Virus record (IMG/VR): IMGVR_UViG_2711768167_000011
Coordinates: 1 to 15,286 of that record
Origin: a virus
Lineage: Duplodnaviria > Heunggongvirae > Uroviricota > Caudoviricetes
DNA length: 15,286 bases
Reading direction: 5' to 3' (one strand)
Position 1 is the stretch's first letter; every line of letters begins with the position of its first letter. The notes below the pieces were generated by a model. It did no database searches. It had not been told where the DNA came from and was given only the letters and a program-made list of their open reading frames with translations. The translations under genes were made by a program, and so were the position numbers. Shown piece by piece: positions 1-15,286 of this stretch.

Positions 1-141
1 CATTACGTGGGTAGGATCAATTTTCCTGATGACCCCATCGACATAGTATTTTTTCAAAGCAAGAATTGCCTTCTCGCTATGTATTCCTGATAGCTTGATC
101 AGGATATCAAAGTCTCTTTCAGATATATTCCCCTTTGTCAT
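1..141 (-). CDS. hypothetical protein, N-terminal fragment (gene continues past the left window edge)
   Basis: ATG at 141..139 with GGAG (rc of 148..151) 6 nt upstream; frame open for 47 codons to the window edge (MTKGNISERDFDILIKLSG...). Absent from the ORF track because truncated. Confidence 0.35.
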   Translation of the reverse strand, partial: MTKGNISERDFDILIKLSGIHSEKAILALKKYYVDGVIRKIDPTHVM

Positions 142-710
142 GTGTCACTCCATGAATCAAATTTCATAGTAATCAATCTTTCTTTGATCGACTTATAGAT
201 AATAAGATCAGAAATGATAAAAAAGTAACGCATATTTCTTCTCGTCATGTCTACTTATAAAATTCAAATGAACTAACCTGAACTACTTACACTGGAATAT
301 CATTATATTGGAATAATTATAAAACTGAACAAAATGGTCAATGTAATCTGGTTAATTTATAAATATTTACATTGCGTGATGATATTTAATTCCAGTGTTA
401 AGTAATGTCACATGCCTATTATTGGTTACTACTTTGTAGGTGTTTTGGTTCGGCGTTAATATCATTGGTCATAATCACCTGTGAAAGTTTATTCTTGAAA
501 TGTTATAGGTATATTACTTGCAATTAAAAATGAGAAATTTATTATTATTGTGTTTTGCAAATATAATAATTAAAAATTTATTATAAATTATGATTAGAAT
601 TGACAATATAAAAGAATAATAAAACTCAATATGAAAATAATTATCATCTGGTTTGATACTTTTGCTGTTGATTACAGGAATAAAGTGTCAGAATAATATT
701 GTTATTGGGT

Positions 711-738
711 AAAAAAAGCCTCCACTATATGTGGAGGC
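711..738 (-). terminator. rho-independent terminator-like hairpin
   Basis: Perfect 8-bp stem GCCTCCAC (718..725) / GTGGAGGC (731..738), 5-nt loop, preceded on plus strand by A7 (711..717), i.e. a U7 tail on minus-strand RNA. Confidence 0.5.
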
Positions 739-1406
739 AAACCCTTAGATAGTTCTATTGAGGCAAGTATGTTATAAATCTGCCTTATCTTTTATAGCAT
801 ATAAAGATATGTATGCTATATTTTTTTTGAAGAAATTTTTCCAGAAATTACAGTAATACAAGAAATATTAACTGGTGTGATTTTTGGATGTTTAATAAGT
901 ACAGTGTACTTATATTTTTGTAATAAAGATGAACGCGTCCTTTAGATAAACTGAAAAATATTAAGCATGTCTCATGTGGTTTTCTGAATCAAAACTCTTT
1001 TCAGTCTTTGATTTTTTGTTAAAAACAGGTTTATTGCAAGGGTGTTGTTGTGAAATGTGTTTTGGTGTCGTTGTGATTTTATGGTGATAATGTGAATTTT
1101 TATCCTTTCAAGATGGCTCCCTGGACGTTAAATACAGTGGAAATTTATATTAAGATATAAATATAACTATTGCGTTATTTAAATTATTGTCTATTACAGC
1201 TCCAGTTAATAGAGCCTGAAGTAATTTCTTAGTATTTCATCATAAGCGTTTATCTATCGTCTCTTTCTAAATTAACCGGTCGTATTACAAGGTGCTGAAT
1301 CTGATTAAGGAATGATACTTAGGGGATTATGGCTGACTTAATAATTAGATAACTGATAAATGACTATCAGGGGGATATCGTTAAGTCAGCCTTTAAAATC
1401 AAGCGA

Positions 1407-2597
1407 TTATATAGCTGGTGACTCTTTTCGAAGAGCATCAAGGTAGTCAGCGTACCATTGCATCATTTCTCGTCTTCCTTCAAGGTAACGAGCATGGTTG
1501 TATGTACCACGAATGCTGTTTTTGTCCGTATGTGCAAGTTGCATTTCAATCCATGCACTATTGAATCCTTGCTCGTGTAGAACAGTACTCATTGTATGAC
1601 GAAATCCATGCCCGGTAGCTTTTTTGTCATAGCCAATCTTCTTCAAAACCATATTGACGCTTGCATCGCTGATAGGCCTGTTAACATCATTTCTTCCGGC
1701 AAAGATGTATCTGTATCTTCCAGTCAGTTCTTTGAGGATTTGCAGAGACTGGATTGCCTGATCTGACAGAGGGACGATATGCTCCTTCCTCATTTTCATC
1801 CGGGTCGGAGGAACTTCCCATATCTTTTGGGTAAAATCGATCTCACACCATTCCCCCATACGTAATTCTACTGTTCTCAGCCCTGTGAGCATCAACAATT
1901 TTGTAGCTTCACGGGTTACAATACTGCCGGTGTAGTTTTCGAGTTTGTATAAAAACTCTGGTAGTTCAGGAGGAAGCAGGAAAGGGTAATGTGTTCGCTT
2001 ATAGCTTTTCATTGCTATAACCAGATCAGAAGCTGGATTGTATCGTGCCCGACCTGTAACAATGGCATACCGAAACACTTCACCACATCGTTGGCGAACT
2101 TTATTAGCTAGCTCGCAGGCTCCTCGGCTTTCGATACGCTGAAGAACTGCGAGAAGTTCAAGAGGTTCGATTTCACTAATGGGTCTGTTTCCAATGTAGG
2201 GAAACACATTATTTTTGAATGCTCTGTCGACATAATCAGCGTAGCTGGCAGACCAGCCTGAAACTTTTGCGTTGTACCACTCGGTGGCGATTGCGGCAAA
2301 AGTTCTTCCTTCGGAAAGGTTTTTCTCAAGATTTTCAGCTTTCTTGACTTCACCGGGATCTTTACCATCGGCATGTATTTTCTTGGCTTCATCCCGACGT
2401 TTGCGAGCTTCAGCCAATGTAATAGTTGGATAGGTGCCAAATGATAGTTTCTTTTCCTTCCCCGCATAGTGGTACTTCATTCGCCAGTACTTTGAGCCGT
2501 TAGGATTGACCTGAAGGTAGAGCCCACCACCATCGGCAATCTTATAAATTTTATCTTTGGGTTTGGCTGTTTCAACTTGTCGAGCTGTCAGTGGCAT
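1407..2597 (-). CDS. P4-type tyrosine integrase (396 aa)
   Basis: ORF-track 405-aa ORF; preferred start is ATG at 2597 (MPLTARQVETAKPKDK...) with GAGG 7 nt upstream, since the track start at 2624 is TTG. P4-Int-like N-terminus (KP.DK...DGGGLYL.V.P.GSK.WR) and C-terminal catalytic signature GHGFRHT ... RGTYNHARY. Confidence 0.9.
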   Translation of the reverse strand: MPLTARQVETAKPKDKIYKIADGGGLYLQVNPNGSKYWRMKYHYAGKEKKLSFGTYPTITLAEARKRRDEAKKIHADGKDPGEVKKAENLEKNLSEGRTFAAIATEWYNAKVSGWSASYADYVDRAFKNNVFPYIGNRPISEIEPLELLAVLQRIESRGACELANKVRQRCGEVFRYAIVTGRARYNPASDLVIAMKSYKRTHYPFLLPPELPEFLYKLENYTGSIVTREATKLLMLTGLRTVELRMGEWCEIDFTQKIWEVPPTRMKMRKEHIVPLSDQAIQSLQILKELTGRYRYIFAGRNDVNRPISDASVNMVLKKIGYDKKATGHGFRHTMSTVLHEQGFNSAWIEMQLAHTDKNSIRGTYNHARYLEGRREMMQWYADYLDALRKESPAI

Positions 2598-2940
2598 CTG
2601 GGGGCCTCGCAATAGATTGACCAAGATGTGCCCCTAAATAGGCCCCCAAATGTGACTTGATTTACGTTCCCCTGAGGAGAATTAAGGCGACTATTTGAGT
2701 AACATAAGTAAGGGTATGTGCTGATTATAAAGGCTTTTTGTGGGGTATGGTAGATTTCAGGAGAGGTGTGCATGGTGTCCCTGCAGAAATCATCTTAATT
2801 ATTATTATGTTGATTTATATGTAGTTTATTTTTGATTTTTTGTTTTTGTACCCGTTTTGTGCCCGTTTTATTCGATTCCCAATTTAAACTTCGATTCTAG
2901 AAAGGTGAGTAGGGGAGGTTGTCATTTCATGTATCATTAT

Positions 2941-2984
2941 TGTAGACACAGAATAATTACTCGCCTATCCTCACTGTAGACACA
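2941..2984 (+). promoter_or_regulatory. direct repeats upstream of the toxin-antitoxin operon (putative operator)
   Basis: Perfect 10-bp direct repeat TGTAGACACA at 2941..2950 and 2975..2984, 25-60 bp upstream of the antitoxin start; AGGAG at 2996..3000. Confidence 0.3.
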
Positions 2985-3008
2985 CAATAGATACAGGAGT
3001 TAACCCAC

Positions 3009-3257
3009 ATGCGCACACAGGTTGTATTGCAAAAATGGGGTAATAGCATTGCCCTTCGACTAACGGGAAACCTTAAAACCGTTCCGGGGTTTTCAGTGGG
3101 TGATATCGTCAACGTTGAAATTAGTGAAAAGGGGCTTTTTGTAGAAAAGCCTGCACGCCGTCGCCTGAGTGAAGCCGAATTACTCGCCGGGATAACGCCA
3201 GTTACAGCGCACGCGGACGAAATTGCCACCCCATTCAATGAGGAGGTTGATTACTGA
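3009..3257 (+). CDS. MazE/PemI/ChpS-family antitoxin (AbrB/SpoVT-type fold), 82 aa
   Basis: N-terminal KWGNSIALRL motif and C-terminal LAELLAGITP...EEV, resembling MazE as recalled; stop overlaps next start (TGATG at 3255..3259). Confidence 0.85.
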   Translation: MRTQVVLQKWGNSIALRLTGNLKTVPGFSVGDIVNVEISEKGLFVEKPARRRLSEAELLAGITPVTAHADEIATPFNEEVDY

Positions 3258-3601
3258 TGTTTGTACCTAAGCGTGGTGATATTTGCTGGCTGGATTTTGA
3301 GCCGCAGAAAGGAAAAGAGAGCGGAAAGTATCGCCCGGCACTCATACTATCCCATGAGCAATATAACCGACTCACCGGGCTTGTCATATGCTGCCCCATA
3401 AGTACGAGCATACGAAATGCTCCCACAGAAGTTCCGGTAACAAATCTGGACGCCCCCAGCGTGGTAGCAACCACACTCATTCAAACCCTTGACTGGCGTC
3501 AGCGGAAAGCGCGCTTAATCACAGAGGCAGAAGATGGGGTATTTAATGATGTGCTTGAAAGAGTCATTACCCTGATTGGTGGAGAGCATCTGCTTAAGTA
3601 A
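3257..3601 (+). CDS. MazF/PemK-family toxin (endoribonuclease family), 114 aa
   Basis: GDICWLDFEP...GKYRPALILS...LVICCPISTS pattern typical of the PemK/MazF family; translationally coupled to the upstream antitoxin. Confidence 0.85.
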   Translation: MFVPKRGDICWLDFEPQKGKESGKYRPALILSHEQYNRLTGLVICCPISTSIRNAPTEVPVTNLDAPSVVATTLIQTLDWRQRKARLITEAEDGVFNDVLERVITLIGGEHLLK

Positions 3602-3604
3602 AAG

Positions 3605-3622
3605 GAGGGCTGAGAAGCCCTC
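3605..3622. other. intergenic hairpin between convergent genes (weak terminator candidate)
   Basis: 7-bp stem GAGGGCT (3605..3611) / AGCCCTC (3616..3622), 4-nt loop; lies between the toxin stop (3601) and the stop of the convergent 423-aa gene (3645). No clean U-tract on either strand. Confidence 0.25.
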
Positions 3623-3644
3623 AACGTTACCAGAAATTTCCTTG

Positions 3645-4916
3645 CTATTCTTTCCAGTCAATCCCATCCAGTAAGCACCCTGCCTCATATTGCCCAACAA
3701 CCCAGTCAAGATTGCAGGACTCATAGAAAGCGAGGCGATTATACTGTGGCTCGTTTTTTACCAGACCACGAACGGAGCCGCGTTGCCAGTACAGGCACAG
3801 ATTGGCAAGAGGTGTGATCAGCACAGCATTGTCCGGGAAAAATGGAACGGTCACAGCCGGAAGATTCCCCAGCACGGGCTTTTTAATGATTTCCTCGTTA
3901 AGCAAAATTTCCTGATTCATCTGCGATGGATCAAGACGGTTTATCAAAGGCCATTGTTTACGGACCAGAGTATTGTGACTGCATACGGCCACAATGCCTT
4001 CCTGCCACTGTTCATCAATCATGGATTGCCAGGCATCCAGAACAAGTGCATCTATTGTATGGTGTGTACCGCGTGTATTGCTTGTCGGCGATGAAACAGA
4101 AAGACCGCTGATAACCCTTCCCGCTGCTTCGTTTCGAAACTTCTGCAACCATCCGACGCCGCAATCGTCACGGCCCGGATATGTTTCAGGATCAGATTGA
4201 TCGGCATAGTGTGTGCCGTTAAAACCAATCTGAATTAAATCCAGCCATTTCCGGCGTTCAAAAGCGGCACGGGCGCTTCCTTCAAGACCATTTGCGGACG
4301 CGTGAGCATCGACATTGTCGTAGCTCAACGCAAAATCAAAATTAACCTGCTCGCAGCGGTAGCCTCTTGAAACCAGTGAATGCGCCTGTAGTGGCGAACG
4401 GCGCTCGTGAGGTGGCGATGTACGTGCCAACGGCCCCGAAGCGTCTACCAGCACAACCTGACCTGATATATCCGTAACAGGCACGGGGGTTATTTCAGCA
4501 AGGAAATTTGCCTGCCATCCACTGGCAAGCGTTGCACTCTGGCGGGGAACGGGTTCAACTTCTGACGAATAGCGCGCAGTATCACCGGAAAAGTGCAAAT
4601 CCTTCGGATGTTTTCCGGTTATCGACTCGATAGCGCAATTGAAAACCATCTGAGACTGTTGATTTCGTTGTGATACAACATAATCAGCAGTGCAATTATA
4701 ACACTCAATGCCGTCGTTATTACCCCCACCGCTTGCAGTATGCAGGGTGTGAAGCTCAAGCTCACGCTCCAGTTTTTGATATTCATTGTCCAGCGCGCGA
4801 CGCGTCTCATCGCTTATGCTTGCTGTGTTTGCTTTCAGGCGATTCCGGGACATTAACTCCCTGAGTCGGCTCACTATATCAGCGCCGTGCAAATGTGAAA
4901 TATTCAGACCGCCCAT
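3645..4916 (-). CDS. hypothetical protein B (423 aa), downstream gene of the two-gene operon
   Basis: ATG at 4916..4914 overlaps the upstream gene stop (TAATG); corresponds to Met48 of the 470-aa ORF-track entry. Long uninterrupted frame; no Walker A, HNH or PP-loop consensus seen by eye. Confidence 0.7.
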   Translation of the reverse strand: MGGLNISHLHGADIVSRLRELMSRNRLKANTASISDETRRALDNEYQKLERELELHTLHTASGGGNNDGIECYNCTADYVVSQRNQQSQMVFNCAIESITGKHPKDLHFSGDTARYSSEVEPVPRQSATLASGWQANFLAEITPVPVTDISGQVVLVDASGPLARTSPPHERRSPLQAHSLVSRGYRCEQVNFDFALSYDNVDAHASANGLEGSARAAFERRKWLDLIQIGFNGTHYADQSDPETYPGRDDCGVGWLQKFRNEAAGRVISGLSVSSPTSNTRGTHHTIDALVLDAWQSMIDEQWQEGIVAVCSHNTLVRKQWPLINRLDPSQMNQEILLNEEIIKKPVLGNLPAVTVPFFPDNAVLITPLANLCLYWQRGSVRGLVKNEPQYNRLAFYESCNLDWVVGQYEAGCLLDGIDWKE

Positions 4917-5626
4917 TACTGCCACCCCCGGCAGAGTTCTCTGCCCTCCGCAAGGTCGCGCATTTTTTCTGGATTCTGTCGCGCCGCGCTCCATTGTACA
5001 GGTGAAGGGGCGTTCCTGATTGCGTGGCTTACCGAATCCGGCAGTTTCTCCGGGCAATAACGAAGCGGATTGGAGGCATCGCTCTCAATATCGTTAATCC
5101 GGCCGCGAATCAGCCTGACACTTTCAACAATATCTGCCACTTTCAGTGTTTCACATATTTTCTTTTCTGCGTTATACAGCGGCTGGCCAAGCAGCTCACA
5201 TAAACCACGAATCAATAACAGAGCAGGGATCAGCTCGTTAATCAGTCCGGGAAGTGCTTTTGCAAATATCTCTGCCCGCAACTTATTATCAATGCTTTCG
5301 TAAGCACAGCCAGCCTCTGCCGCGTTATAACGACACTCCAGTAACATGATGCGCGCCTCATCATGCAATACCCGCAGACGCTCAAGATTTTCTCGCGCCA
5401 CACCCGCCTGAATGGATAATTTTGCGGAGGCTTCCGTTTTTGCGCCCAGCGCAGACAGGATTGAGTTCTGCCAGTCACGATCGAGAGACTCCAGCTCCCC
5501 TTTCGTCTGTTCGATAGTCGCTTCCAGATTGGTGATTAATGATTCCTGTTCGCTGAGTTTTGCGCTGGCCGTATCAAACTGTGCTTTACATGCCTGATGC
5601 TTGGCGCTTGCCTGAGTTATATCCAT
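4916..5626 (-). CDS. hypothetical protein A (236 aa), predicted helical/coiled-coil N-terminal half
   Basis: ATG at 5626..5624 with AGGAG 6 nt upstream (rc of 5633..5637); heptad-like charged/hydrophobic N-terminus (LSEQESLITNLEATIEQTKGELESLDRDW); stop TAA at 4918..4916 overlaps the start of gene B. Confidence 0.7.
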   Translation of the reverse strand: MDITQASAKHQACKAQFDTASAKLSEQESLITNLEATIEQTKGELESLDRDWQNSILSALGAKTEASAKLSIQAGVARENLERLRVLHDEARIMLLECRYNAAEAGCAYESIDNKLRAEIFAKALPGLINELIPALLLIRGLCELLGQPLYNAEKKICETLKVADIVESVRLIRGRINDIESDASNPLRYCPEKLPDSVSHAIRNAPSPVQWSAARQNPEKMRDLAEGRELCRGWQ

Positions 5627-5676
5627 TGTTTGCTCCTGTAATACATTTTTTACTTACGCGGATTTTTTCCATATTG

Positions 5677-5735
5677 CGTAATACATTCCAGCCGATTTTG
5701 TTCTCGTAATACGCTCACAATACTGTTGTATTACG
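5677..5735. promoter_or_regulatory. divergent promoter/operator region with GTATTACG-family repeats
   Basis: CGTAATAC at 5677..5684 and 5705..5712, GTATTACG at 5728..5735; the last two form a perfect 8-bp inverted repeat with a 15-bp spacer. Sits between the start of gene A (5626, minus) and the small plus-strand gene (5791). Confidence 0.4.
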
Positions 5736-5790
5736 CTTTCTTATATCGCGGGTGTTAAATCCAGGCATAAGCAATCAGGGAGGCAACACG

Positions 5791-6024
5791 ATGAAAAAAC
5801 AAAAGAAAATGCGATACGTATTACGCTGTATTCGTATCCCGCACGAAATCGACCATAAAATAAATCAGATATGTGAGGACAGAGAGATGAACTACTCCCA
5901 GTGCGTCAGAATGTTTATCAGTCAGGGAATTAAGGCCGGGGAAACGCAGGAAGAAGACCGCAACGGGCGCAATGTAGCGGGGGATGTGTGGGCCTGGGCA
6001 AATGACCAGAACTACACGACGTAA
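5791..6024 (+). CDS. small DNA-binding-like protein (77 aa), possible ribbon-helix-helix regulator
   Basis: ATG at 5791 with GGGAGG (5777..5782) upstream; the ORF-track start at 5752 is GTG without an SD. Predicted beta-strand then helices (MRYVLRCIRIPHEIDHKINQICEDRE...), judged by eye only. Confidence 0.5.
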   Translation: MKKQKKMRYVLRCIRIPHEIDHKINQICEDREMNYSQCVRMFISQGIKAGETQEEDRNGRNVAGDVWAWANDQNYTT

Positions 6025-6074
6025 TACAGAAATAACGTAGCCGGTTACACTCGCTGGCTGTGTTATACAAATCA

Positions 6075-6257
6075 CTATGAAGTTTTCAACTTCCTGCGCT
6101 TAGTGATGCGTACAAACGACTCAAGCGTACAAAAACAAGCCCCACACTCAATATTATTGCACTGGTAATACGTTTTGTAGATGTTTTGTTCGTGTTCTTC
6201 CAACGAACGACTACGGGTTCGGGTTGAAGCGCCACAGGCCGGGCAAGGGAAAGACAT
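6075..6257 (-). CDS. Ogr/Delta-family zinc-finger transcriptional activator (60 aa)
   Basis: Four-Cys pattern CPACG...(22 aa)...CNNIECGACF with the conserved YYQCNN-type core of P2 Ogr / P4 Delta as recalled; ATG at 6257 with AGGAG 8 nt upstream. Confidence 0.7.
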   Translation of the reverse strand: MSFPCPACGASTRTRSRSLEEHEQNIYKTYYQCNNIECGACFCTLESFVRITKRRKLKTS

Positions 6258-6618
6258 ATCACGCTCCTCTTACTGGTGTGAAATTTGACCTATTATATCT
6301 TCTGCCGCCCCCTCTGGCTGTATCAAATAAACCCGCAGCAGTCGCCGCGTATTACGCACGGACGCACCGTTCCCATGCTCACTCGTCACATTCCCCGTAT
6401 CAGTTCTCTCTTACCGTAAGAACGGCTCTGGCTGGCGATAAAACTAACCCGGTCGGGCATTCCCGCAGTCTTTAGAGAAAATGTAATTTACCCCCTGAAA
6501 CGCGGGCTGTTCCCCCGTCACCTGCGCGCGAAAAACTCACCGTTTTTTGTGCACGCACGAAATCGCCCTCCGGGTGCGCCAGTACTGGGCTGGATGGGCA
6601 AAAAGTTACTCTAAAAAA

Positions 6619-6645
6619 TTGTGCAAATTTGTGCACTTTTGTGCA
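6619..6645. promoter_or_regulatory. three phased TTGTGCA direct repeats (putative operator or activator site)
   Basis: TTGTGCA at 6619, 6629 and 6639, exactly 10 bp apart; a fourth copy at 6547..6553. Confidence 0.3.
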
Positions 6646-6871
6646 GATGAACAATAGCGTGAAAAAGAGTGCTTTTGAGAGATTTTTTATGGCAACTGCG
6701 CCGCGTGTATTACGTTTTTTACCATCCCCGCCGCGCATGTACATACTTCATTTTTCTGCCAGACAACAGGGCAACTCCCCGTGACTGACAGCCCCAAAAA
6801 ATCAATGATTGATGTTGCATTTTTGTTAAAGGTTAGACCAGTTGTTTTAGGGCTCTGCCTCATAATCCGGT

Positions 6872-7185
6872 GGGGGGTGCGCAAAGCGGTTACAACGGTT
6901 ACAACACTCAAAAACACCACTTAACAGCATGATTTTAATGGATATTGTTTGTAACCGCTTTGCGGTTACACTGCGGTTACAACGGTTACAGGTTTCAAAA
7001 AGCACTTTATTATCAATCAATTAAAAACTTAACCTGTAACCGCCTGTAACCTAACAAAACGGTTACATGTAACCGCGTTGTAACCGCTTTTGTAACTCAT
7101 CGGACCAGTTATAATATATTGATATATAATACAAAAATAAGTAATTTTAAATTTGTAACCGTTGTAACCGCTTTGCGCACCCCCC
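6872..7185. repeat. iteron array (14 copies of GGTTACA/TGTAACC) bounded by 33-bp perfect inverted repeats; candidate replication origin or recombination substrate
   Basis: IR-left 6872..6904 is the exact reverse complement of IR-right 7153..7185, extendable to 36 bp with one mismatch. GGTTACA at 6888, 6897, 6964, 6975, 6984, 7061; TGTAACC at 6950, 7035, 7045, 7068, 7079, 7154, 7163. Internal palindromes GTAACCGCTTTGCGGTTAC (6951..6969) and GGTTACATGTAACC (7061..7074). Confidence 0.6.
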
Positions 7186-7380
7186 CCCAAACTTTAGCGC
7201 GACCCTTTAAAATGTTAATTAAACTCACTTACTCTGTATCTCTCTCGTTAACTTTCTGTTATTGAAATGTATCTCTCCACTGTTTGACTCTTTCTCATAA
7301 TCAGGGGAAGCAAAAAATTGATGGCGGCACTACTGCAATATGGCCACCATTGCATTGCTGTTACCGTTGGTTCTGGCCAA

Positions 7381-7412
7381 CAAAAAAGGTCAGCGGGAAA
7401 CTGACCTCTTTT
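7381..7412 (-). terminator. rho-independent terminator downstream of the primase-integrase operon
   Basis: 7-bp stem AGGTCAG (7387..7393) / CTGACCT (7401..7407), 7-nt loop, flanked by A6 (7382..7387) and TTTT (7409..7412), so bidirectional in form; about 25 nt past the integrase stop at 7437. Confidence 0.6.
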
Positions 7413-7436
7413 GCTGTGAATGCGGCGTTCTGCGGG

Positions 7437-8441
7437 TTACTCTGCTGGCTCTTTTTCTTCGGTGATCACTATGTTGGCTACCGGGTTAAATCTCATGGCA
7501 TCTGCCAGATAATCCGGTGCAAAATGTGCGTATGCCATAGTCTGCTGAATTGTCGCATGCCCAAGGATTTTTTGTAGCGCAAGAATGTTGCCACCGTTCA
7601 TCACAAAGTGACTGGCGAATGTATGCCGCAATACATGCGCAGCCTGCCCCCTCGGTAAATCGGGTTTTATTTTTTTTAATGCCCGGCAAAACTCTCTGTA
7701 CTTCACATCAAACAGTCGCCCGGTTTCTTTTGTTTTTACGGCATCGCATATTTCCTGCGACACAGGCACCGTTCTTTTTCTACCGTTTTTGGTTTCCAGA
7801 AACGTTATTCTGTTATGAACTATTTGCTCTCCATGCAATCTGCTGGCCTCACTCCAGCGGGCTCCGGTACAAAGACACAAGAGCGCAACCCTTCGTTGAT
7901 CTCCATTCAGCCCGTCAAGCAACAATGTGACCTCGTTTTTTGATAAAAAGGCCATTTCCCGCTGCTTTACATAAAGAACAGGAATACCACGAACCGGATG
8001 CTCTGCATCCCACAAACCGATCTTTTTCAGGGCTGTAAACATCCCCGATAATCTGTTCATGTATCTGTTTGCTGAGGACGGCTTTAATCCTTCCGCAATT
8101 TTCTGCGATCGCCATGCAATGATTTTTAATTTGTTGAGTTCTGCCGCAAACATGTCAGCTCCAAGCTCATTAATAATTTTGCCAAGTTGCTGTTTATCCG
8201 TGTTTGCCTTTCGCCTGTGCTGACCGTGATAGACCCACCACAATTCCAGTAAATCGCTAAGCGTTCTCCGGTCGCGATAGCCCTGTATAAACTCGCGCTT
8301 TTCGGCGTTCGCTATGATGTACCGTTCAGTTGCTGTAGCTATCGATTTTTTGTCAAATATTCTTCTGATGCGCTTCCCTTTACGTCCGCATGGCCTGATA
8401 TCGAGCAGCCACCGCCCATCATGCATCTTTCTGATCGGCAT
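7437..8441 (-). CDS. P2-type tyrosine integrase (334 aa)
   Basis: N-terminus MPIRKMHDGRWLLDIRPCGRKGKRIRRIFDKKS closely resembles recalled P2 Int (DGRYEVDIRPTGRNGKRIRRKFDKKS); catalytic HVLRHTFASH and C-terminal Tyr (QTMAYAHF). Start ATG at 8441 with AGGAGG upstream; the ORF-track start at 8477 lacks an SD. Confidence 0.85.
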   Translation of the reverse strand: MPIRKMHDGRWLLDIRPCGRKGKRIRRIFDKKSIATATERYIIANAEKREFIQGYRDRRTLSDLLELWWVYHGQHRRKANTDKQQLGKIINELGADMFAAELNKLKIIAWRSQKIAEGLKPSSANRYMNRLSGMFTALKKIGLWDAEHPVRGIPVLYVKQREMAFLSKNEVTLLLDGLNGDQRRVALLCLCTGARWSEASRLHGEQIVHNRITFLETKNGRKRTVPVSQEICDAVKTKETGRLFDVKYREFCRALKKIKPDLPRGQAAHVLRHTFASHFVMNGGNILALQKILGHATIQQTMAYAHFAPDYLADAMRFNPVANIVITEEKEPAE

Positions 8442-8443
8442 GT

Positions 8444-11113
8444 TTAACTCCCCTCCTTGTAACTGAATATCCGGCATTTCAGTACTTCCGGCTCTCTGGC
8501 CTCGGCGACCCCTCTTCCGGCGTTTGCCTGTCTGGAGACCTCACTACGAATGGTTTTGCGGCCTGTCAAAGGTCGGGAACGTCCGGCTGCGAGCAACTCA
8601 ATCATTTCGCGGTCAGTTCGGATCTCCACGCGGTGGATAGCGGCAGCCTGTGCCAGTTGCGGAATACTGATAGCAATCCCCTCGCGGCATCCCTTGCCGT
8701 AGTGGTTTACACCGTATTTTGTTATGCCGTCCAGATAGTCGAACGCCTCCCAGAACGCTATTACTTCCGGCAAGTCATCCGTTACCGCTTTAACTTGTTC
8801 CGCTGCCATTCGTTCCAGTTCCTGGCATGTGGCATTAAGCCATTCATCCGGGATATCAATAACGCATTTCAGCGCCCTGACCAGCGCAATAAGTTGCGCG
8901 TGATTTTTGGCAATACGGGGATGGAGAATATTTTCGCAACCGCAAAGGCGGGTCGTTTCAGGCTCTGAGAGCGCCAGAAACATTTCCATAATTGCCCGTT
9001 CACGGCTGACTGCCCGATGAATAAACCCTGACACCTTCTCAACGGGGTAGAGTTCCAGTCGTCTCGCCGCCAGCCGGGTATCAGACGAGTGGCGCTTTTT
9101 ATCGGTATATATGCGAATCAGTCGCTCAATAATTGCAAGTGAGGCGTTTACCCTGGCATTCTGTGCAATCACGATAGCGCCCTTAAAATCCGGGTCATAG
9201 GTGTTGTTATTGTTGGTCTTAACGCCACGAACGCCGATACCGCCGCCGTTATAGAGGCTTTTCAGGTTATCGAAGTCAAACGCACCTCTTTTTTGCGCAT
9301 TGCCTCCCCGGTCTGCTTCAATCAGAACAACAGGTAATCCGGCGACCTGTCCAAAGGTGCGCTTCCAGCCCGCCTCTGATCCTTTGGTTGGATCAACGCC
9401 TTCATAGTTGTCACGACCGCACAACCGCCAGCAAAAATCAATCAATGTTGATTTACCCGTTCCGGGCTCCCCGGTGACTTCAAGGAAGGGGAAGGATTCT
9501 TCTTTATCCCGGATTTGTTCGCTGAACAGGGAGCCCAACCAGAAAGCCAGGGTAATAATTCCTTTTTCACCAAAAGCCAGCCAGAGATCTTCCACCCAGG
9601 ACTCTGTAAACTCATCCGGTTTTTTGTAGTTAATCTGTAATGTGGGTTTTTCGCTTAATGGTTTTGCGTTTATGCCATCAATTTCAAAATAATCTTCGTC
9701 ATTGATTTCATAAGTTTTTCCCTTGTAAACAGCAATATCATTAAACAGCCATGCCCCAATCGCCTTGTTGTATCCGATAAAATCCTGACCAATAACCTCT
9801 TTTATTGCGGGAAGGTCATTTTTTATTAATGCGTCAAGGTGCGCAGTTGTTCCGGTATAAATGCCGCCTTTTGCCACATGCAACAGGCGTTTTTTAAATT
9901 CAGATGCGGATGTCAATTGTCCTGATGTAAAGGTGTTTTTCACCGTAGCACCATCCGGGAACGTAACACGGAAGTAATACCATGCTTCATCCGTGTCATT
10001 ATTTCGAATGTAATAAAGCGGCGCTGGGTTACAGTTTGCGATTTCTTTTACTGCGCCAGATTCCTTAAGTGCAATTTTGCGCGCTTCATCCTCATCAACA
10101 CTTCTCTCATTCTTGGCACGCTCTACAGCTTTCATATAGCGCTCAATGTCCAGTTTGAACCAGAAAACACGGTTATCAAAAGTAAAATGAAATTCCTTCC
10201 GCTCACGAAAGGAAAATATTATTAGCGCCTTATCTCTCGGAGATTTCGCCAGCAATAAATCACCGTAATGACGGTATCTTTTCACATCATGGCCACGCAG
10301 CTTTCCGGCGATGTGTAAATCATTCCAGTCGCGTTTATTGTTGTTTTTACCTGGCAACGCCGCTGCCGTTCTCCAGCCGTCTTCGGCGCTGCGTTCTGCA
10401 TGTTTTTTCGCGTAACGCTCACCCGCACGCCCGTTATCCAGCGCCCACACAATAACCGGACGGGGATTATCCCCGCACAGCTTCGCCAGCTCTTCCAGCG
10501 CCTTATCAGGGTAGTTCACGGCAGACATGACAGAAACGGCCGCAATGCCATTCTGGTTAAGGCTGATGGCATCAAAGATGCCCTCACAAATCCAGATTTC
10601 TTTGGCCTTGCTTAAATCTGCTCCCGGATAAGCCCACCACAACCCCTTGTAGCTGCCGGAAAAATTCGCCTTGCGCGCGAAGCGTCCCGGTCTGTCTATG
10701 ATGCGCTCCCACCACACGCCGTCAGCCAGCGTAAAACGCACAGTAGCGGCCTGTTCGCCGTTTTCCTTGTCCTGGTATCGCTCCTGAGTAAATGCGCCCT
10801 TCAGTGGCCCCACAGCAATATTGCGCGCCTCCTGAAGATAAGCTGCCACCGCTGCATATGGCTCGTCTTTCGTGCTGATATAACGATCTGACCATGATGA
10901 AAACACATCCGGGTAAAGTTCTTTGGTCAGCAGGTCTGTACCGCATTTATTTTCGCGCCCACAGTGTACGATGTACGGCCTTTCAAGGCTGGTAAACAAC
11001 TCTTTCTTTCCACATTGCGGACAAACACCATACCGGAGGTAGTTATTTTCTTCTTTGAAGTTGTAATCACGGATAAGACGGTTAATAATCTCTTTTCTGA
11101 TGTCAGATTTCAT
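8444..11113 (-). CDS. bifunctional primase-helicase (P4 alpha-like / PICI pri-rep-like), 889 aa
   Basis: N-terminal zinc-binding CPQCGKK...HCGRENKCG, Toprim-like ICEGIFDAISL, P-loop GEPGTGKST and Walker-B-like VVLIEAD. ATG at 11113 with GGAG 8 nt upstream preferred over the GTG at 11137. Confidence 0.85.
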   Translation of the reverse strand: MKSDIRKEIINRLIRDYNFKEENNYLRYGVCPQCGKKELFTSLERPYIVHCGRENKCGTDLLTKELYPDVFSSWSDRYISTKDEPYAAVAAYLQEARNIAVGPLKGAFTQERYQDKENGEQAATVRFTLADGVWWERIIDRPGRFARKANFSGSYKGLWWAYPGADLSKAKEIWICEGIFDAISLNQNGIAAVSVMSAVNYPDKALEELAKLCGDNPRPVIVWALDNGRAGERYAKKHAERSAEDGWRTAAALPGKNNNKRDWNDLHIAGKLRGHDVKRYRHYGDLLLAKSPRDKALIIFSFRERKEFHFTFDNRVFWFKLDIERYMKAVERAKNERSVDEDEARKIALKESGAVKEIANCNPAPLYYIRNNDTDEAWYYFRVTFPDGATVKNTFTSGQLTSASEFKKRLLHVAKGGIYTGTTAHLDALIKNDLPAIKEVIGQDFIGYNKAIGAWLFNDIAVYKGKTYEINDEDYFEIDGINAKPLSEKPTLQINYKKPDEFTESWVEDLWLAFGEKGIITLAFWLGSLFSEQIRDKEESFPFLEVTGEPGTGKSTLIDFCWRLCGRDNYEGVDPTKGSEAGWKRTFGQVAGLPVVLIEADRGGNAQKRGAFDFDNLKSLYNGGGIGVRGVKTNNNNTYDPDFKGAIVIAQNARVNASLAIIERLIRIYTDKKRHSSDTRLAARRLELYPVEKVSGFIHRAVSRERAIMEMFLALSEPETTRLCGCENILHPRIAKNHAQLIALVRALKCVIDIPDEWLNATCQELERMAAEQVKAVTDDLPEVIAFWEAFDYLDGITKYGVNHYGKGCREGIAISIPQLAQAAAIHRVEIRTDREMIELLAAGRSRPLTGRKTIRSEVSRQANAGRGVAEAREPEVLKCRIFSYKEGS

Positions 11114-11161
11114 ATATAAAACTCCACCCCACTGCACCTTTTGCCGTGGGGTTTTTATTAA

Positions 11162-11461
11162 TTACTCGTTACTTATTGCTTTGGCAATCCCGGCGGTTTC
11201 AGCACTATGCCATGAAAAAATTCCGCCAGAAGTATGCATTCCTGACTTAATCACTCGTAATTCCCGATAAAGAATGTTAGTTAATGATTCCATTTCATTA
11301 ATTTGCACTGGCATTCTCTCACTGGTATTAATTTCACCTGTCAATGCTGAAAGGAGCGCAATAACATTTATTACATCTTCAAGATTCTCAATGGAATCTT
11401 CCGTGAAAAAACCAGCGTATTCTTTTTTGTATATATTGCGGATATTCTGATTTTTAGACAT
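11162..11461 (-). CDS. hypothetical protein (99 aa)
   Basis: ATG at 11461 with GGGGAG 5 nt upstream; sits immediately upstream of the primase on the same strand. Confidence 0.5.
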   Translation of the reverse strand: MSKNQNIRNIYKKEYAGFFTEDSIENLEDVINVIALLSALTGEINTSERMPVQINEMESLTNILYRELRVIKSGMHTSGGIFSWHSAETAGIAKAISNE

Positions 11462-11528
11462 AAAAACTCCCCGACCCGTTAAGATCGAAATATAAATTTA
11501 ATTCAGTTATCAGTTGGTAATTCGGTAA

Positions 11529-11747
11529 TCAGTCGGAAAGCTGCGTCACCTTCAACGCTTTGAAATGTGTCATTCCCAGCTCTTCCAGCCCTTCGGCTGC
11601 GCGGCGTATGGCTTCGCCCGGTCCTGTTCCGTATACCGTTGCATGTGCATGTTTGGTTAACCCACGTTTATTAACGGCATAACCCAACACAAAGAAACGT
11701 TTTTCACCACTGCCATTATTTTTACGGGATATTGAACGGCTTTTCAT
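11529..11747 (-). CDS. hypothetical small protein (72 aa)
   Basis: ATG at 11747 overlaps the upstream stop (ATGA), indicating translational coupling. Confidence 0.45.
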   Translation of the reverse strand: MKSRSISRKNNGSGEKRFFVLGYAVNKRGLTKHAHATVYGTGPGEAIRRAAEGLEELGMTHFKALKVTQLSD

Positions 11748-11932
11748 TTCTTCACCTTTACCACTGATGCTGTGAGTTCTTCTTCTGGCAATTGATATTT
11801 CGGCGCAATTTCTTCCGTATACCTGATAGCGTCCCTTGCCGCTTTTCCTTTTGATTTATATTTACGTATCGTGTGGAAGTTTTCTTCCTCTCCTGTTACC
11901 ACATTACGCAATTTAATATGAATCTCGTACAT
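11744..11932 (-). CDS. hypothetical small protein (62 aa)
   Basis: ATG at 11932 (Met11 of the ORF-track entry, MYEIHIKL...) with GGAGG 7 nt upstream; 2 nt after the upstream stop. Confidence 0.45.
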   Translation of the reverse strand: MYEIHIKLRNVVTGEEENFHTIRKYKSKGKAARDAIRYTEEIAPKYQLPEEELTASVVKVKK

Positions 11933-11934
11933 CG

Positions 11935-12117
11935 TTACCCCTCCATGATTTTTACTGCGCATTTGTGGGTTAATCGCCCCTGTTTGTCATTGCGGGAATA
12001 TGCCATACGACAGGCATCAAGCCATACATCGTCATAAGTCGGATATTCCCGGGAATGAATCATCTGGCGAACGTCGCCGTTCTGGTAGTTAATCAGGGTG
12101 ATAAGGAGCTTAAACAT
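11935..12117 (-). CDS. hypothetical small protein (60 aa)
   Basis: ATG at 12117 (Met27 of the ORF-track entry, MFKLLITLINY...) with GGGAGG 6 nt upstream; overlaps the 3' end of the Icd-like gene by 8 nt. Confidence 0.4.
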   Translation of the reverse strand: MFKLLITLINYQNGDVRQMIHSREYPTYDDVWLDACRMAYSRNDKQGRLTHKCAVKIMEG

Positions 12118-12283
12118 GGCACGCCTCCCGGACACGGATACGGGCAACAAAGACCAGACGAGATGCCGGAAGCAGGGCGCGCGCTTCGCGCTCACTGGCA
12201 GCGGTAACGGTATGAAGGCGGATATTTTTACCGTGGCACTGCATAAAGCGCCAGATAAAATCAGGGCGTGTTGATATAGCCAT
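12110..12283 (-). CDS. Icd-like cell-division-inhibitor family small protein (57 aa)
   Basis: C-terminal 57 aa of the 175-aa ORF-track entry, starting at ATG 12283 with AAGGAG 8 nt upstream; FIWRF...SEREARALL...LVFVARI pattern resembles Icd-like proteins of P4-like elements as I recall them. Confidence 0.5.
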   Translation of the reverse strand: MAISTRPDFIWRFMQCHGKNIRLHTVTAASEREARALLPASRLVFVARIRVREACHV

Positions 12284-12699
12284 TTTGGCGGCTCCTTCTA
12301 CTGATTTACGGAGTCTCGCCAGCACGCTGCTAAACATGGTGGCGGGACGTAACAGGGTTAGCAGACTGGCGTAGAAGAAACCAGCGAGCGCAAAGGCTCC
12401 CCCATTACGCCCCGCCATAATACGGGGTAGGGTGGAATTACGGGCACAAAAAAACCGCATTACGGAAATATAGCGGCTACCCGCTTCTACTATCAGGCTG
12501 CTAAACCCGGCACCCGCTTTATGAGGTGCGGGCAAACGATACGCCATGACAAAAAAGCGAGTCAAGCAATATTGCAAATTATTTTTGGGCGATTGCGCTG
12601 AGTGATTGATTTTTAAGAGTAAAAAAGTCATAATCATTTCTGGCTATTGTTTCTTATTGTTGATTTCAGGTGCACTAAATGCACATCCTTGACTGGTTG

Positions 12700-12729
12700 G
12701 CTCGCTGGCTTTAGCGAGCTTCTTTTTTG
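12700..12729 (+). terminator. plus-strand intrinsic-terminator-like hairpin with no plus-strand CDS upstream
   Basis: 7-bp stem GCTCGCT (12700..12706) / AGCGAGC (12713..12719), 6-nt loop, followed by TTCTTTTTTG (12720..12729). Confidence 0.3.
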
Positions 12730-13190
12730 CTCTGCTGTCAGTGATCGGCCTCCTTCCCTCATATGTAGTCATGTGCTCATTCCAGTCAGGTGGATAATGC
12801 TGTATTACCGGACATCCGGTTATGATGTTTAAAGCGTTTGTTTGTTTATGCCACGTGGAGAATATACCCCCACCGCCATTACTTGTATTTATCATAACAG
12901 TTCACCCAATTCGGTTAATGTAACCGGAATAACTCAATTTCATACACTGTAAATAAATGCTGATTTTAAACTTAGCTCCTTGGAATATATTTCTTACGTG
13001 TGACGCACAGGTGAAAATATCCCTCTGATAGTCCATTTTCTTTTATTTTGTCACATCTGTTTACTCCGGTTCCCTTAACAAGGGTAGAGCATCTTTTAAA
13101 CCATGAATGCATCTTCGGTTAAGTGATGTTTCTTATTGTATGAAATATTTAGGCGCATATCGCGCCATGCTGACTATAAAATGAAAATAA

Positions 13191-13412
13191 TTAAGCCTGA
13201 AAACGTTGTTGTTTTCTTTCTTCTATCCAGTCGATAATTTCCTCTTCAACCCATGCAACCGCGCGAGGGCCTATTTTTATTGGTTTGGGGAATATATCAG
13301 ATTTTATATCTTCGTAAATTCGAGCTCTTGATCTCCCTGTGATTTCAATGACTCTGGGGAGTCTTATTAATTTTTGAATCCGCCTTTCGCTGGTCTGTGA
13401 GTATGCTGACAT
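13191..13412 (-). CDS. alpA: AlpA-family (excisionase-like) phage transcriptional regulator (73 aa)
   Basis: LIRLPRVIEITGRSRARIYEDIK...FPKPIKIGPRAVAWVEEEI matches the AlpA/Xis-like helix-turn-helix pattern; ATG at 13412 with AGGAGG 5 nt upstream. Confidence 0.85.
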   Translation of the reverse strand: MSAYSQTSERRIQKLIRLPRVIEITGRSRARIYEDIKSDIFPKPIKIGPRAVAWVEEEIIDWIEERKQQRFQA

Positions 13413-13942
13413 ATTGGCCTCCTGTATATGCTGACATTTTACGTTAGCTCACAGCGGGAGCATGTAAGATCTCGCGGTCGTCTGCGGGACGAGAAAAATC
13501 ATAAACAACGAAAAGCGGATTTGTAAATCAGGTCGATTTTCAGGCGGGGTTGACAGGGACAGTGAGATTTGTTCCATGTGTGCAATATACATTTTAGGAC
13601 CACTTTAAGCCACTTTAAACCGCCAGAAAGCGACAAAGAATAACAAGTTAGTGCCAGAAAGGTTTGCTGACTTACCCTTTTAGGTACCAGAAAAAGCCCT
13701 TTCAGGTCGGTGTAATGCTTGTGAACGCTGAAATAGTGGTTTCTGAAAACAAAAAAAGAATTGAAAATGCGATACATATCACAAAATAATATCGATAAAA
13801 TAGTTTGATTTTTTTTGTTTTTATTAAAAGCACTGGTTAATTGTAAAAAATTAATTATAAATCAAATGGATATATCTGTTTTTTTAGGGTAAAAATCACT
13901 AGGTGCTTTTAGCAGTATCTTATTCTATTGATTTTAAAAGAT

Positions 13943-13976
13943 AAAAAAATCGGCGTGTCCACATATTGTCCACGCC
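13943..13976 (-). terminator. rho-independent terminator candidate downstream of the right-hand integrase
   Basis: Stem GGCGTG (13952..13957) / CACGCC (13971..13976), preceded on plus strand by A7 (13943..13949), i.e. a U7 tail on the minus strand; about 50 nt past the integrase stop at 14024. Confidence 0.45.
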
Positions 13977-14023
13977 TTGAGTTTAATTCAGCCGCTTGGG
14001 ATAGTTTAGTTTGTTGAGTTGAT

Positions 14024-15286
14024 TCAGTCTGTTTCGTTAGTCCATTTAAAATCATAGGGGGAAATATATGCCGTCTTGCAGGTGTCGAGATAATCAGCCC
14101 ACCATTGCAACATTCGGCGGCGTTCCTGCATATGTTCAGCTCTGTGAACGTATGCAGCCCGGACACTGCCTCTTTCCCTGTGACTCATCTGAAGCTCAAC
14201 GGCTTCTCTTGTCCACCTGCCTGACTCTGTCAGCGCCGAACAGGCCATGGTCCTGAATCCGTGACCACAAATATCTTTTTTTGTGTCGTATCCCATGTGG
14301 CGTAATGCCTTGTTAATGGTGTTTTCGCTCATTGGTTTTATCTGGTAATGGTCGCTGGGGAAAATAAACACTTCATCACCGGATATATTTCTTATATCGT
14401 CAAGAAGCTGCATGGCCTGAGTGGGTAAAGGGATGGCGTGAGGGGTTCCCATTTTCGTTCCACGATATGAATATTTTACGCCTTCTATTTTTTCGCGTTC
14501 TGCTGGTATTACCCACATTGATTTATCAAAGTCAATTTCATTCCAACGAGCAAAACGCAATTCACTTGAGCGAATAAAAATTAATAAATTTAATTTTAGT
14601 GCAAATTGCGTTAATAACCGTCCATTCATCTTATGGTGGTAATCATTTATTTTGCCAAGTAATTCAGGTAATCGCTCAAGGGGAAGAGCGGGGCGATGTT
14701 TGGTTTTATTAGTTTCGATTGCACCGTTCAGTTCCTGCGCTGGATTGTATTTAATCATTCCATTCTGTACAGCGTAGCGCATAATGGCGTTCATTCGCTG
14801 CTTGTTACGTGATGCTGTCTCAAGCACTCCTTTGTCTTCCATTTTGCGTAAAGGAATCAGTAGATCCATGGTTGTGATCTCGTTAATTGGCCTTTTACCA
14901 AGAATGGGGAAGATGTGGTTTTCCAGGTCTTTTAAGACTTTTTGCGCGTGTAATTCGCTCCACCCCTTTTTCCGGCTGTGCCATTCTCTGGCAACGTCTT
15001 CAAAAAGCACTATTTGAGGTTTTGGTGTGTGCAGTGGGTCAATGCCTTTAGCCAGGCTCGCCAGATATTCATCACGAGCGTTCCTTGCCTGTGCAAGTGT
15101 TACGGCAGGATAAATGCCTAAAGCTCGGGTCGTTTCTTTACCGTTGATAACCTTGCGAAAGCGCCAGTATTTTGAGCCGTTGGGGTGAACATAGAGATAC
15201 AGGCCTTTCCCGTCACGAAGTTTTTTAATTTTATTGTTGTCCTTATCTGGTTTGGCGTTACGTACAGCTATATCAGTCAGTTTCAT
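14024..15286 (-). CDS. P4-type tyrosine integrase (420 aa)
   Basis: N-terminus MKLTDIAVRNAKPDKD...GKGLYLYVHPNGSKYWRF typical of P4-family integrases; catalytic GHGFRTMA and C-terminal RAAYVHRAEH; the start codon is the last 3 nt of the window, so RBS and upstream att lie outside. Confidence 0.9.
   Translation of the reverse strand: MKLTDIAVRNAKPDKDNNKIKKLRDGKGLYLYVHPNGSKYWRFRKVINGKETTRALGIYPAVTLAQARNARDEYLASLAKGIDPLHTPKPQIVLFEDVAREWHSRKKGWSELHAQKVLKDLENHIFPILGKRPINEITTMDLLIPLRKMEDKGVLETASRNKQRMNAIMRYAVQNGMIKYNPAQELNGAIETNKTKHRPALPLERLPELLGKINDYHHKMNGRLLTQFALKLNLLIFIRSSELRFARWNEIDFDKSMWVIPAEREKIEGVKYSYRGTKMGTPHAIPLPTQAMQLLDDIRNISGDEVFIFPSDHYQIKPMSENTINKALRHMGYDTKKDICGHGFRTMACSALTESGRWTREAVELQMSHRERGSVRAAYVHRAEHMQERRRMLQWWADYLDTCKTAYISPYDFKWTNETD

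Follow-up and report, generated by a model that had tools for sequence, protein, structure and literature searches.

Palindromes around a divergent late-promoter region of a P2-dependent phage satellite as candidate operators of a small ribbon-helix-helix-like protein

Short palindromes recurring around a small regulatory gene raise the question of which protein reads them and which promoters this would control. We encountered such a cluster in a viral sequence of the class Caudoviricetes (IMG/VR record IMGVR_UViG_2711768167_000011), of which we analyzed positions 1 to 15,286, hereafter the window. The window is an Escherichia coli P2-dependent phage satellite with a P4-like backbone and its own P2-family capsid gene. 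In this element, gene A and the capsid gene are transcribed leftward and a gene for a 77-amino-acid (77-aa) protein diverges from them, followed by an Ogr/Delta-like gene and the packaging site cos (Table 1). The palindromes, in our view, are probably operators of the 77-aa protein, which would repress two divergent Ogr-dependent late promoters.

An initial annotation of the window had listed seven copies of the 8-mer GTATTACG or its reverse complement CGTAATAC within about 1 kb, far more than chance would supply. All seven are present, at 5677(-), 5705(-), 5728(+), 5818(+), 6020(-), 6349(+) and 6707(+), and there are no others in the 15.3 kb of the window. The seven copies within 5677-6714 compare with an expectation of 0.39, and none of 200 dinucleotide-preserving shuffles reached this number. 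For the 7-bp core GTAWTAC, the window has 14 occurrences where 1.43 are expected; nine of these fall within 5638-6713 (~1.1 kb), including the related GTAATAC at 5638 that had already been pointed out and a copy at 6165 that had been missed. Read with one base on either side, every copy is an odd-centered 9-bp palindrome, YGTAWTACR, with the full form CGTAWTACG at 5705, 5817 and 6348. A perfect inverted repeat with a 15-bp spacer, CGTAATAC-N15-GTATTACG (31 bp), had also been described, and it is found at 5705-5735. It arises because the window lineage has an extra copy (5705-5713) within a putative activator site, the Ogr box described below. The functional unit is the 9-bp palindrome, not the 31-bp inverted repeat. 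Two of the earlier placements needed amendment. One copy (5818) does lie inside the 77-aa gene, but the copy assigned to the sequence just after this gene (6020) overlaps its stop codon. Likewise, only one of the two copies placed upstream of the Ogr-like gene (6349) is close to it, and 6349 and 6707 are better seen as flanking cos (6480-6646).

Comparison of close relatives indicates that the palindromes are under selection. The region is found in 57 of 5426 complete E. coli genomes (~1%), all at 95-99% identity; the satellite family is also widespread in Salmonella enterica, where one relative occurs on 589 contigs. We aligned 14 loci and counted variation over 13 E. coli loci (91-99% identity), excluding locus L015 with its deletion. 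A single one of 63 core positions was variable, compared with 189 of 1071 positions (18%) elsewhere in 5627-6760 (Fisher p = 1e-4). The 6349 copy was unchanged with 14 of 50 flanking positions variable, and the 6707 copy was unchanged with 34 of 50. Moreover, loci L009 and L013 keep the 6707 copy together with the T run that follows it, amid flanks that are essentially unalignable on both sides. No variation was seen in 14 relatives at the copy that adjoins the Shine-Dalgarno sequence of gene A. The sole copy that was lost is 6020, through the substitution G6021A in L009, L013 and L014, and the viral contig L021 is also devoid of it. Diverged relatives of the Ogr-like gene or of the whole region were not found among the complete E. 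coli genomes, and the close relatives thus showed conserved sites without any co-variation.

Word-indexed searches with the 77-aa protein returned only near-identical E. coli sequences. An exhaustive HMMER search, by contrast, uncovered a small family at 28-37% identity, to which a profile search added further Salmonella and E. coli members. Overall, the distant relatives share 28-38% identity and stem from E. coli, Salmonella and metagenomes. Every relative that we looked up resides in the same module, formed by a P2-family capsid gene, a gene for a protein of ~240 aa and the divergent gene for the small protein, which in most relatives is followed by an Ogr-like gene, cos, iterons and the primase gene. 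In all eight lineages compared (the window, L022, L023, L027, L029, L030, L032 and L033/34), lineage-specific palindromes cluster around the small gene. Across these lineages, the palindrome changes along with the 77-aa protein. In the window, the predicted β-strand VLRCIRIP accompanies the palindrome CGTAWTACG, while VLR[T/S]xRIP goes with TGTAWTACA in L027, L023, L030 and L033/34 (6-8 copies each), VLRAMRVP with TGTATAACA in L022 (3 copies) and IRRTIRIP with TGTCWGACA in L029 and L032. The difference in the flanking base is statistically supported: C is found in 10 of 16 half-sites of the window, but in 4 of 26 half-sites of L027 and L023 taken together (p = 0.003).

A natural mosaic narrows the search for the binder. 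The MazEF/capsid-end flank and the cos/ori flank of L029 are 88-90% identical to the window, whereas its central segment, comprising the capsid gene, gene A, the small protein and the Ogr-like gene, is divergent. Because the intergenic palindrome of L029 follows this central segment, the binder appears to be encoded there and not to be tied to cos, the replication origin or the primase. L029 also carries three 126-bp tandem repeats between its Ogr-like gene and cos (L029 3760-4140), two of which contain a TGTCAGACA palindrome.

To place the sites relative to promoters, we aligned the intergenic regions of five lineages. The alignment revealed a conserved TTGT-N12-ACAA block that equals the canonical Ogr/Delta site and that remains constant while the palindromes vary. 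Exact matches are present in L027, L023, L022, L030, L033 and L034, with a single match per locus except for L023, which has two; L029 and L032 show the variant TTGT-N12-AGAA. Searching the surroundings of the cluster in the window for exact TGT-N12-ACA finds nothing, because the window box begins with TTCT, and we recognized it only through alignment with the distant lineages. The center of the box is 80-101 bp away from both start codons, a layout shared with the annotated P2 pO/pP region and with the O/P intergenic region of a helper-type prophage with matching cos. This box is thus the putative activator site common to both divergent late promoters, and the island's Ogr/Delta-like protein presumably acts there and not at the palindromes. 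Candidate start points are located near 5655 (leftward) and 5767 (rightward). The hexamers aligned with the -10-like hexamer of gene A are GATAAT, TATAAC and AAAAAT in other lineages, and those aligned with the -10-like hexamer of the 77-aa gene are GACAAT, GATAAT and GAATAT. A consensus sigma-70 scan of the divergent region revealed no strong promoter, which fits activator dependence. The second exact box of L023 (L023 4451-4470) is found ~90 bp upstream of its Ogr-like gene, beside two palindromes, and suggests Ogr auto-activation in this lineage. Upstream of the Ogr-like gene of the window no such TTGT-N12-ACAA box was found; a perfect TATAAT is present at 6292-6297 (minus strand), with no good -35 element.

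Relative to this box, the palindromes keep their places. The copy at 5677 is offset by -28.5 to -29.5 bp from the box center in the window, L027, L023 and L029 and, as judged from coordinates, in L030 and L033, with the L032 copy at the aligned position. The center of the copy at 5727 lies 20.5-21.5 bp from the box center and 60-61 bp before the 77-aa start codon in the window, L027, L023 and L022, and L030 and L033 are arranged alike. Equivalents of the copy adjacent to the gene A Shine-Dalgarno sequence were found in L027 (TGTAAGACA), L022 and L033. In contrast, the copy inside the Ogr box is absent from the other lineages compared. Own-type copies are also present on the left of cos in L027, L023, L029, L030, L032 and L033, and 47-61 bp to the right of the cos TTGTKCA repeats in the window, L022, L023, L027, L030 and L033. 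A terminator-like hairpin at 6334-6349 (minus strand) abuts the 6349 palindrome and stays pairable through substitutions in relatives (6337/6346, 6338/6345). Two further copies fall into coding sequence. At 5817, the codons GTA TTA CGN have equivalents in L027, L022 and L030 (GTA TTG CGC in L023 and L033), and the rare codons GTA TTA recur in the window and these three lineages despite ~35% protein identity. The significance of this copy is doubtful, as an operator role is inseparable from coding constraint. The copy at 6165 is probably a coding coincidence, because GTAATAC recurs at the equivalent place of a helper-type ogr gene but not in the Salmonella relative.

We next consider the 77-aa protein itself. 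An AlphaFold2 (AF2) monomer model, built from an alignment of seven family members, shows an extended stretch at residues 1-17 and helices at residues 18-31 and 35-57, with a predicted local distance difference test (pLDDT) score of 87-90 over residues 21-40. A Foldseek search of this model against the PDB yielded ribbon-helix-helix (RHH) proteins for nearly all of the top ~47 matches, with probabilities of up to 0.96 and E-values of 0.16-2, among them the Arc-operator complex, CopG-DNA, NikA, AmrZ, SvtR, CdbA and several antitoxins. The corresponding search with a single-sequence AF2 model was uninformative. Below the family thresholds, the Pfam and NCBIfam matches to residues 14-50 likewise all belong to RHH families (CopG_antitoxin, RelB/DinJ, ORF56 and TraM), and UniRef gives one Salmonella relative the name 'Arc family DNA-binding protein'. 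Judging from the model, an RHH fold is probable. Sequence searches of the PDB with the 77-aa protein yielded no significant match; profile matches to Mdm35 were discarded, as they reflect the CX9C-like Cys spacing alone. Residues 28, 38 and 69 stand out beyond the fold: in most relatives, a Cys pair with this spacing sits where helix A ends and helix B starts, and a Trp that is invariant in all relatives belongs to a C-terminal helix beyond the RHH core. This Trp helix could be an interaction or sensing surface.

With this information at hand, we propose the following model. The sequence between gene A and the divergent 77-aa gene would be a control region of the P2 pO/pP type, with a single Ogr box ~55 bp from both starts. 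RHH dimers of the 77-aa protein would occupy the YGTAWTACR palindromes. One operator would cover the core of the gene A promoter (position -26) and another that of the 77-aa gene promoter (position -34), with further operators inside the Ogr box (in the window lineage) and next to the ribosome-binding site of gene A. In this way, the protein would repress both promoters, its own included, and compete with Ogr-type activation. If there is a basal level of the 77-aa protein, this arrangement could be a gate that holds the capsid operon shut until the helper enters its late phase; otherwise, it could be a negative-feedback brake that sets in after Ogr has switched the region on. Because both promoters look Ogr-dependent, the protein may act mainly as such a late-phase brake. 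The copies to the left and right of cos would belong to the same regulon, with a possible role in packaging-site architecture. The initial annotation had surmised a regulon of one DNA-binding protein, plausibly the 77-aa protein, that may gate an unknown operon. The conserved sites, the RHH model and the co-variation of palindrome and protein speak in favor of this binder, whose identity we infer from them; the sites appear to overlie a P2-type late promoter core, and the operon turns out to be gene A plus the capsid gene. A wider version of this model is speculative and, in our estimate, rather unlikely as a whole. It would have the window represent an undescribed class of P2-parasitic satellites with their own gpN-like capsids, in which the RHH protein is a master switch that keeps an otherwise Ogr-inducible capsid operon closed, couples late transcription to packaging-site availability by occupying both sides of cos and is freed by a helper protein acting on the Trp helix, similar to SaPI Stl (SaPI, Staphylococcus aureus pathogenicity island).

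Several observations weigh against operators of the 77-aa protein at late promoters. We infer the binding, the start points, the repressive sign and the relief of repression alike. The RHH assignment comes from a model of moderate confidence (mean pLDDT 71) whose Foldseek E-values do not fall below 0.16, and the strand region of the monomer is disordered, as is expected of an RHH monomer. No curated family scores over its threshold: the best Pfam match is CopG_antitoxin (E = 0.072, 14.3 bits versus a cutoff of 28), the best NCBIfam match is RelB_DinJ (17.4 bits versus a cutoff of 45.65), and there is no PHROG match. The mismatch in the Ogr box of the window affects the G of TGT. The sigma-70 elements are only predictions, and weak ones. 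The motif types amount to only ~3-4 independent ones. Moreover, since the 77-aa protein comes in one jointly inherited module with gene A, the capsid gene and the Ogr-like gene, the co-variation points to this module and not uniquely to the 77-aa protein. On the right of cos, L029 carries a copy of the window type that differs from the palindrome of L029 itself, which makes this copy uninformative and not supportive. Finally, promoter control explains neither the copies that flank cos nor those within coding sequence.

The palindromes could also be sites of the Ogr-like protein of the island or of the helper Ogr, i.e., a diverged form of the P2 late-promoter activator site. The location of the Ogr-like gene within the cluster, the resemblance of YGT-N3-ACR to TGT...ACA half-sites and the failure of the exact TGT-N12-ACA search in the window would all agree with this. 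Yet a separate TTGT-N12-ACAA box is conserved in other lineages and aligns with the one-mismatch box of the window, and the palindromes flank this box at fixed offsets. As the box stays constant while the palindromes change by lineage, the palindromes are not Ogr sites. The GTATTACG palindromes also have the spacing YGT-N3-ACR and not that of the Ogr/Delta dyad TGT-N12-ACA, and P2 late promoters are without such palindromes. A further argument comes from L027 (6251-6470) and L028, two independent assemblies of a Salmonella lineage, in which the Ogr-like gene is interrupted by an in-frame stop codon inside the first CxxC zinc-binding motif, yet seven TGTAWTACR palindromes are retained, six of them in the full form TGTAWTACA. 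We therefore regard recognition by Ogr as very improbable. A protein from outside the satellite, either an early regulator of the helper phage or a state-sensing transcription factor of the host, is a different candidate. Helper proteins commonly control satellites, as P2 Cox acts on P4, and the type of palindrome could track the type of helper. However, P2 and the cos-matched P2-like prophage have no cluster and three scattered GTAWTAC each, for which reason we rejected sites derived from a helper. L029, with the cos/ori segment of the window at 90% identity and thus presumably the same helper packaging specificity, nevertheless has a different intergenic palindrome. On the side of the host, we know of no E. 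coli regulator with this palindromic site, although no database was searched for one, and no LexA box or other host operator was recognized by eye. An external binder is thus unlikely. With these candidates set aside, the small RHH-like protein is the only remaining candidate of the central segment with a predicted DNA-binding fold.

Even with the 77-aa protein as the binder, its main job might be architectural, in that it would loop, mark or mask the packaging site and thereby offer the satellite DNA to the helper terminase or keep it away. The own-type copies on both sides of cos (right side only in L022) fit such a function, and so does the survival of the 6707 copy in L009 and L013 amid diverged flanks. 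On the other hand, the best-conserved positions lie over the two divergent promoters, and the island encodes no terminase-like partner or known RHH packaging factor. Architecture and promoter control are mutually compatible, and we consider it improbable that the former is the principal role. Chance, base composition or coding constraint might in turn have produced the cluster as a by-product. Two copies have coding roles, 6165 for YYQC of Ogr proteins and 5818 for VLR of the 77-aa protein, and the 6020 copy is dispensable in some relatives. This is opposed by the shuffles, none of which matched the observed counts, by six copies that are non-coding, by the conservation of copies amid variable flanks and by the equivalent lineage-specific palindrome clusters in seven other lineages. 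For the non-coding copies, a by-product is effectively refuted, and as an account of the whole cluster we give it almost no credence. Operators of the 77-aa protein at the two late promoters remain the explanation that we favor.

How does this arrangement relate to known systems? Arc and Mnt of phage P22, MetJ and CopG are RHH repressors whose operators are short and either palindromic or repeated. The 77-aa protein resembles them in its small size (~50-80 aa), its basic N-terminal tail and its predicted β-strand, which ends in Pro and precedes two helices, and the predicted fold matches the Arc-operator and CopG-DNA structures. Under our model, it would also share with these systems a short near-palindromic site per dimer, with several sites over promoter cores and a gene that is probably autoregulated; the metbox of MetJ comprises 8 bp. 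Unlike these proteins, the 77-aa protein stays below the family thresholds and has an extra C-terminal helix, the invariant Trp and the conserved Cys pair. Its proposed sites are spread over 1.1 kb instead of forming one compact operator, and the promoter concerned would be an activator-dependent late promoter.

P2 and P4 are the textbook helper-satellite pair, and their late promoters are regarded as simple switches activated by Ogr/Delta. At P2 pO/pP and P4 Psid, this activation takes place at TGT-N12-ACA centered near -55. As in these systems, the window has one dyad midway in a divergent region of ~165 bp before a capsid-type operon, with an Ogr/Delta-family gene encoded nearby. In contrast to P2 pO/pP, the box of the window is mismatched, palindromes bracket and invade it, and one arm of the divergent pair drives the small regulator in place of terminase and portal genes. 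To our knowledge, no repressor operators have been described on late promoters of P2 or P4. With P4, the satellite shares an integrase by a tRNA gene, an AlpA-like gene, isrK and the C4/CI RNA, an Icd-like gene, a large primase, an Ogr/Delta-like gene and a P2-type cos. It differs from P4 by the capsid gene and coiled-coil gene A where sid, psu and epsilon were not seen among the scanned proteins, by a cos in the middle of the element, by a second tyrosine recombinase and by the proposed extra RHH-like control of the late operon. SaPI Stl offers a parallel in concept, as a satellite-encoded DNA binder at a divergent region could hold morphogenesis genes off until the helper acts. Stl, however, belongs to the helix-turn-helix proteins, its targets are excision and replication, and helper proteins lift its repression, whereas in the window the target would be a late capsid promoter and the predicted fold is RHH.

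Each part has known counterparts: RHH repressors act at short palindromic operators, the late promoter is of the P2 type, and the backbone resembles that of P4. The combination brings together a probable RHH family that is novel in sequence, putative operators that bracket the Ogr box and flank cos, and satellites that carry their own P2-family capsid gene. Our literature searches returned no description of this satellite type, of the motif or of the combination of parts. Capsid-carrying satellites appear to place lineage-specific, repressor-type operators on the late switch and around the packaging site. If the model holds, it would show a satellite timing or limiting its own capsid production relative to the helper. 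The novel RHH family would have diversified specificities (CGTAWTACG, TGTAWTACA, TGTATAACA and TGTCWGACA), useful for studies of DNA recognition by β-sheets or for orthogonal repressor/operator pairs, and the sites would form a defined set for satellite induction experiments.

Table 1 Features of the control region and of the adjoining genes in the window, ordered by position.
Feature	Position	Strand	Remarks
Gene A and capsid operon	3645..5626	-	Proposed target of regulation
P2-family major capsid gene	3645-4916	-	Pfam Phage_cap_P2, E = 1.5e-73; RefSeq annotation of locus L001
Gene A	4916-5626	-	236 aa; coiled coil; no known family
Palindrome TGTAATACA	5637..5645		Directly upstream of the gene A Shine-Dalgarno sequence; ~+15 from the putative gene A start
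-10-like hexamer AAAAAT, gene A	5662..5667	-	Position weight matrix scan; putative start near 5655; Ogr box at -55
Palindrome CGTAATACA	5677..5685		~-26 of the putative gene A promoter, in the spacer between -35 and -10
Ogr/Delta box-like dyad TTCT-N12-ACAA	5701..5720		Center 5710.5; one mismatch from TTGT-N12-ACAA
Full palindrome CGTAATACG	5705..5713		Within the Ogr box spacer; only in the window lineage
Palindrome TGTATTACG	5727..5735		~-76 of the gene A promoter; ~-34 of the putative 77-aa gene promoter
-10-like hexamer TTAAAT, 77-aa gene	5755..5760	+	Putative start near 5767; Ogr box at ~-56
Gene of the 77-aa ribbon-helix-helix-like protein	5791..6024	+	Proposed palindrome binder
Full palindrome CGTATTACG	5817..5825		In the 77-aa gene; Val-Leu-Arg codons of the predicted β-strand
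Palindrome CGTAATACA	6020..6028		Across the stop codon of the 77-aa gene; least conserved copy
Ogr/Delta-like zinc-finger gene	6075..6257	-	60 aa; Pfam Ogr_Delta, E = 3.4e-10
GGTAATACG	6164-6172		Inside the Ogr-like gene; encodes the conserved YYQC of Ogr proteins
Full palindrome CGTATTACG	6348..6356		~95 bp before the start codon of the Ogr-like gene; cosN lies ~160 bp to the right
P2-type cos region	6480..6646		167 bp; bracketed by two palindrome copies
Palindrome TGTATTACG	6706..6714		61 bp right of the cos TTGTGCA repeats

The satellite is integrated beside a tRNA-Arg gene. From right to left, the integrase gene is followed by the AlpA-like gene, isrK and the C4/CI RNA, the Icd-like gene, the gene of a toprim primase of ~890 aa and the second tyrosine recombinase; further leftward come GGTTACA iterons, cos, the Ogr/Delta-like gene, the 77-aa gene, the divergent gene A, the capsid gene and MazEF. 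The capsid protein is 34% identical to P2 gpN and has an N-terminal extension of ~85 aa. Gene A is not similar to gpO, the scaffold protein of P2; sequence searches with it against the PDB, Pfam, PHROGs and NCBIfam yielded no significant match, and a word-indexed protein search returned only near-identical E. coli sequences. Sid, Psu and epsilon had no recognizable match among the window proteins scanned, which leaves the P4 core set (int, alpA, alpha primase, delta, sid, psu and epsilon) incomplete and makes the element a P4 relative whose morphogenesis module differs. The window and the related loci L022-L034 form a family of P2-dependent satellites in which a P4-like backbone is combined with a gpN-like capsid gene and a coiled-coil gene of ~240 aa outside known families, in place of sid and psu. 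Rfam matches at 12335-12529 (-) to C4 antisense RNA (73 bits) and isrK (50.6 bits) correspond to the CI RNA immunity region of the P4 type.

The cos region is ~81% identical to the DNA just beyond the portal gene in P2-like prophages of ~1100 E. coli genomes, while its similarity to the cos of P2 itself is weak. It contains a cosN-like CTGTTCCCCCGTCACCTGCGCG at 6508-6530 and three TTGTGCA repeats at 6619-6645. A 90-aa 'hypothetical protein' annotated by RefSeq (6472-6744, minus strand) overlies cos and is probably not a gene. To the right, the GGTTACA/TGTAACC iterons at 6869-7188, with at least 20 copies, are framed by 36-nt inverted arms (6869-6904 and 7153-7188), and a lone copy is found at 6042-6051. 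This field is probably the replication origin used by the toprim primase. The iteron sequence is lineage-specific, with CATTACA in L022 and AGGTAACA in L033. Between the primase gene and the iterons, the second tyrosine recombinase (7437-8477, minus strand; Int_N and Phage_integrase domains) is kept in L027, L030, L032 and L033. A further integrase gene to the left of the satellite (1407-2624, minus strand) is missing from L001. Beside the capsid gene, the MazE/MazF pair (3009-3601, plus strand) is the cargo of the window; because relatives carry HicAB, ParE/RelB or CcdAB at this position, the site appears to be a hotspot for toxin-antitoxin cargo.

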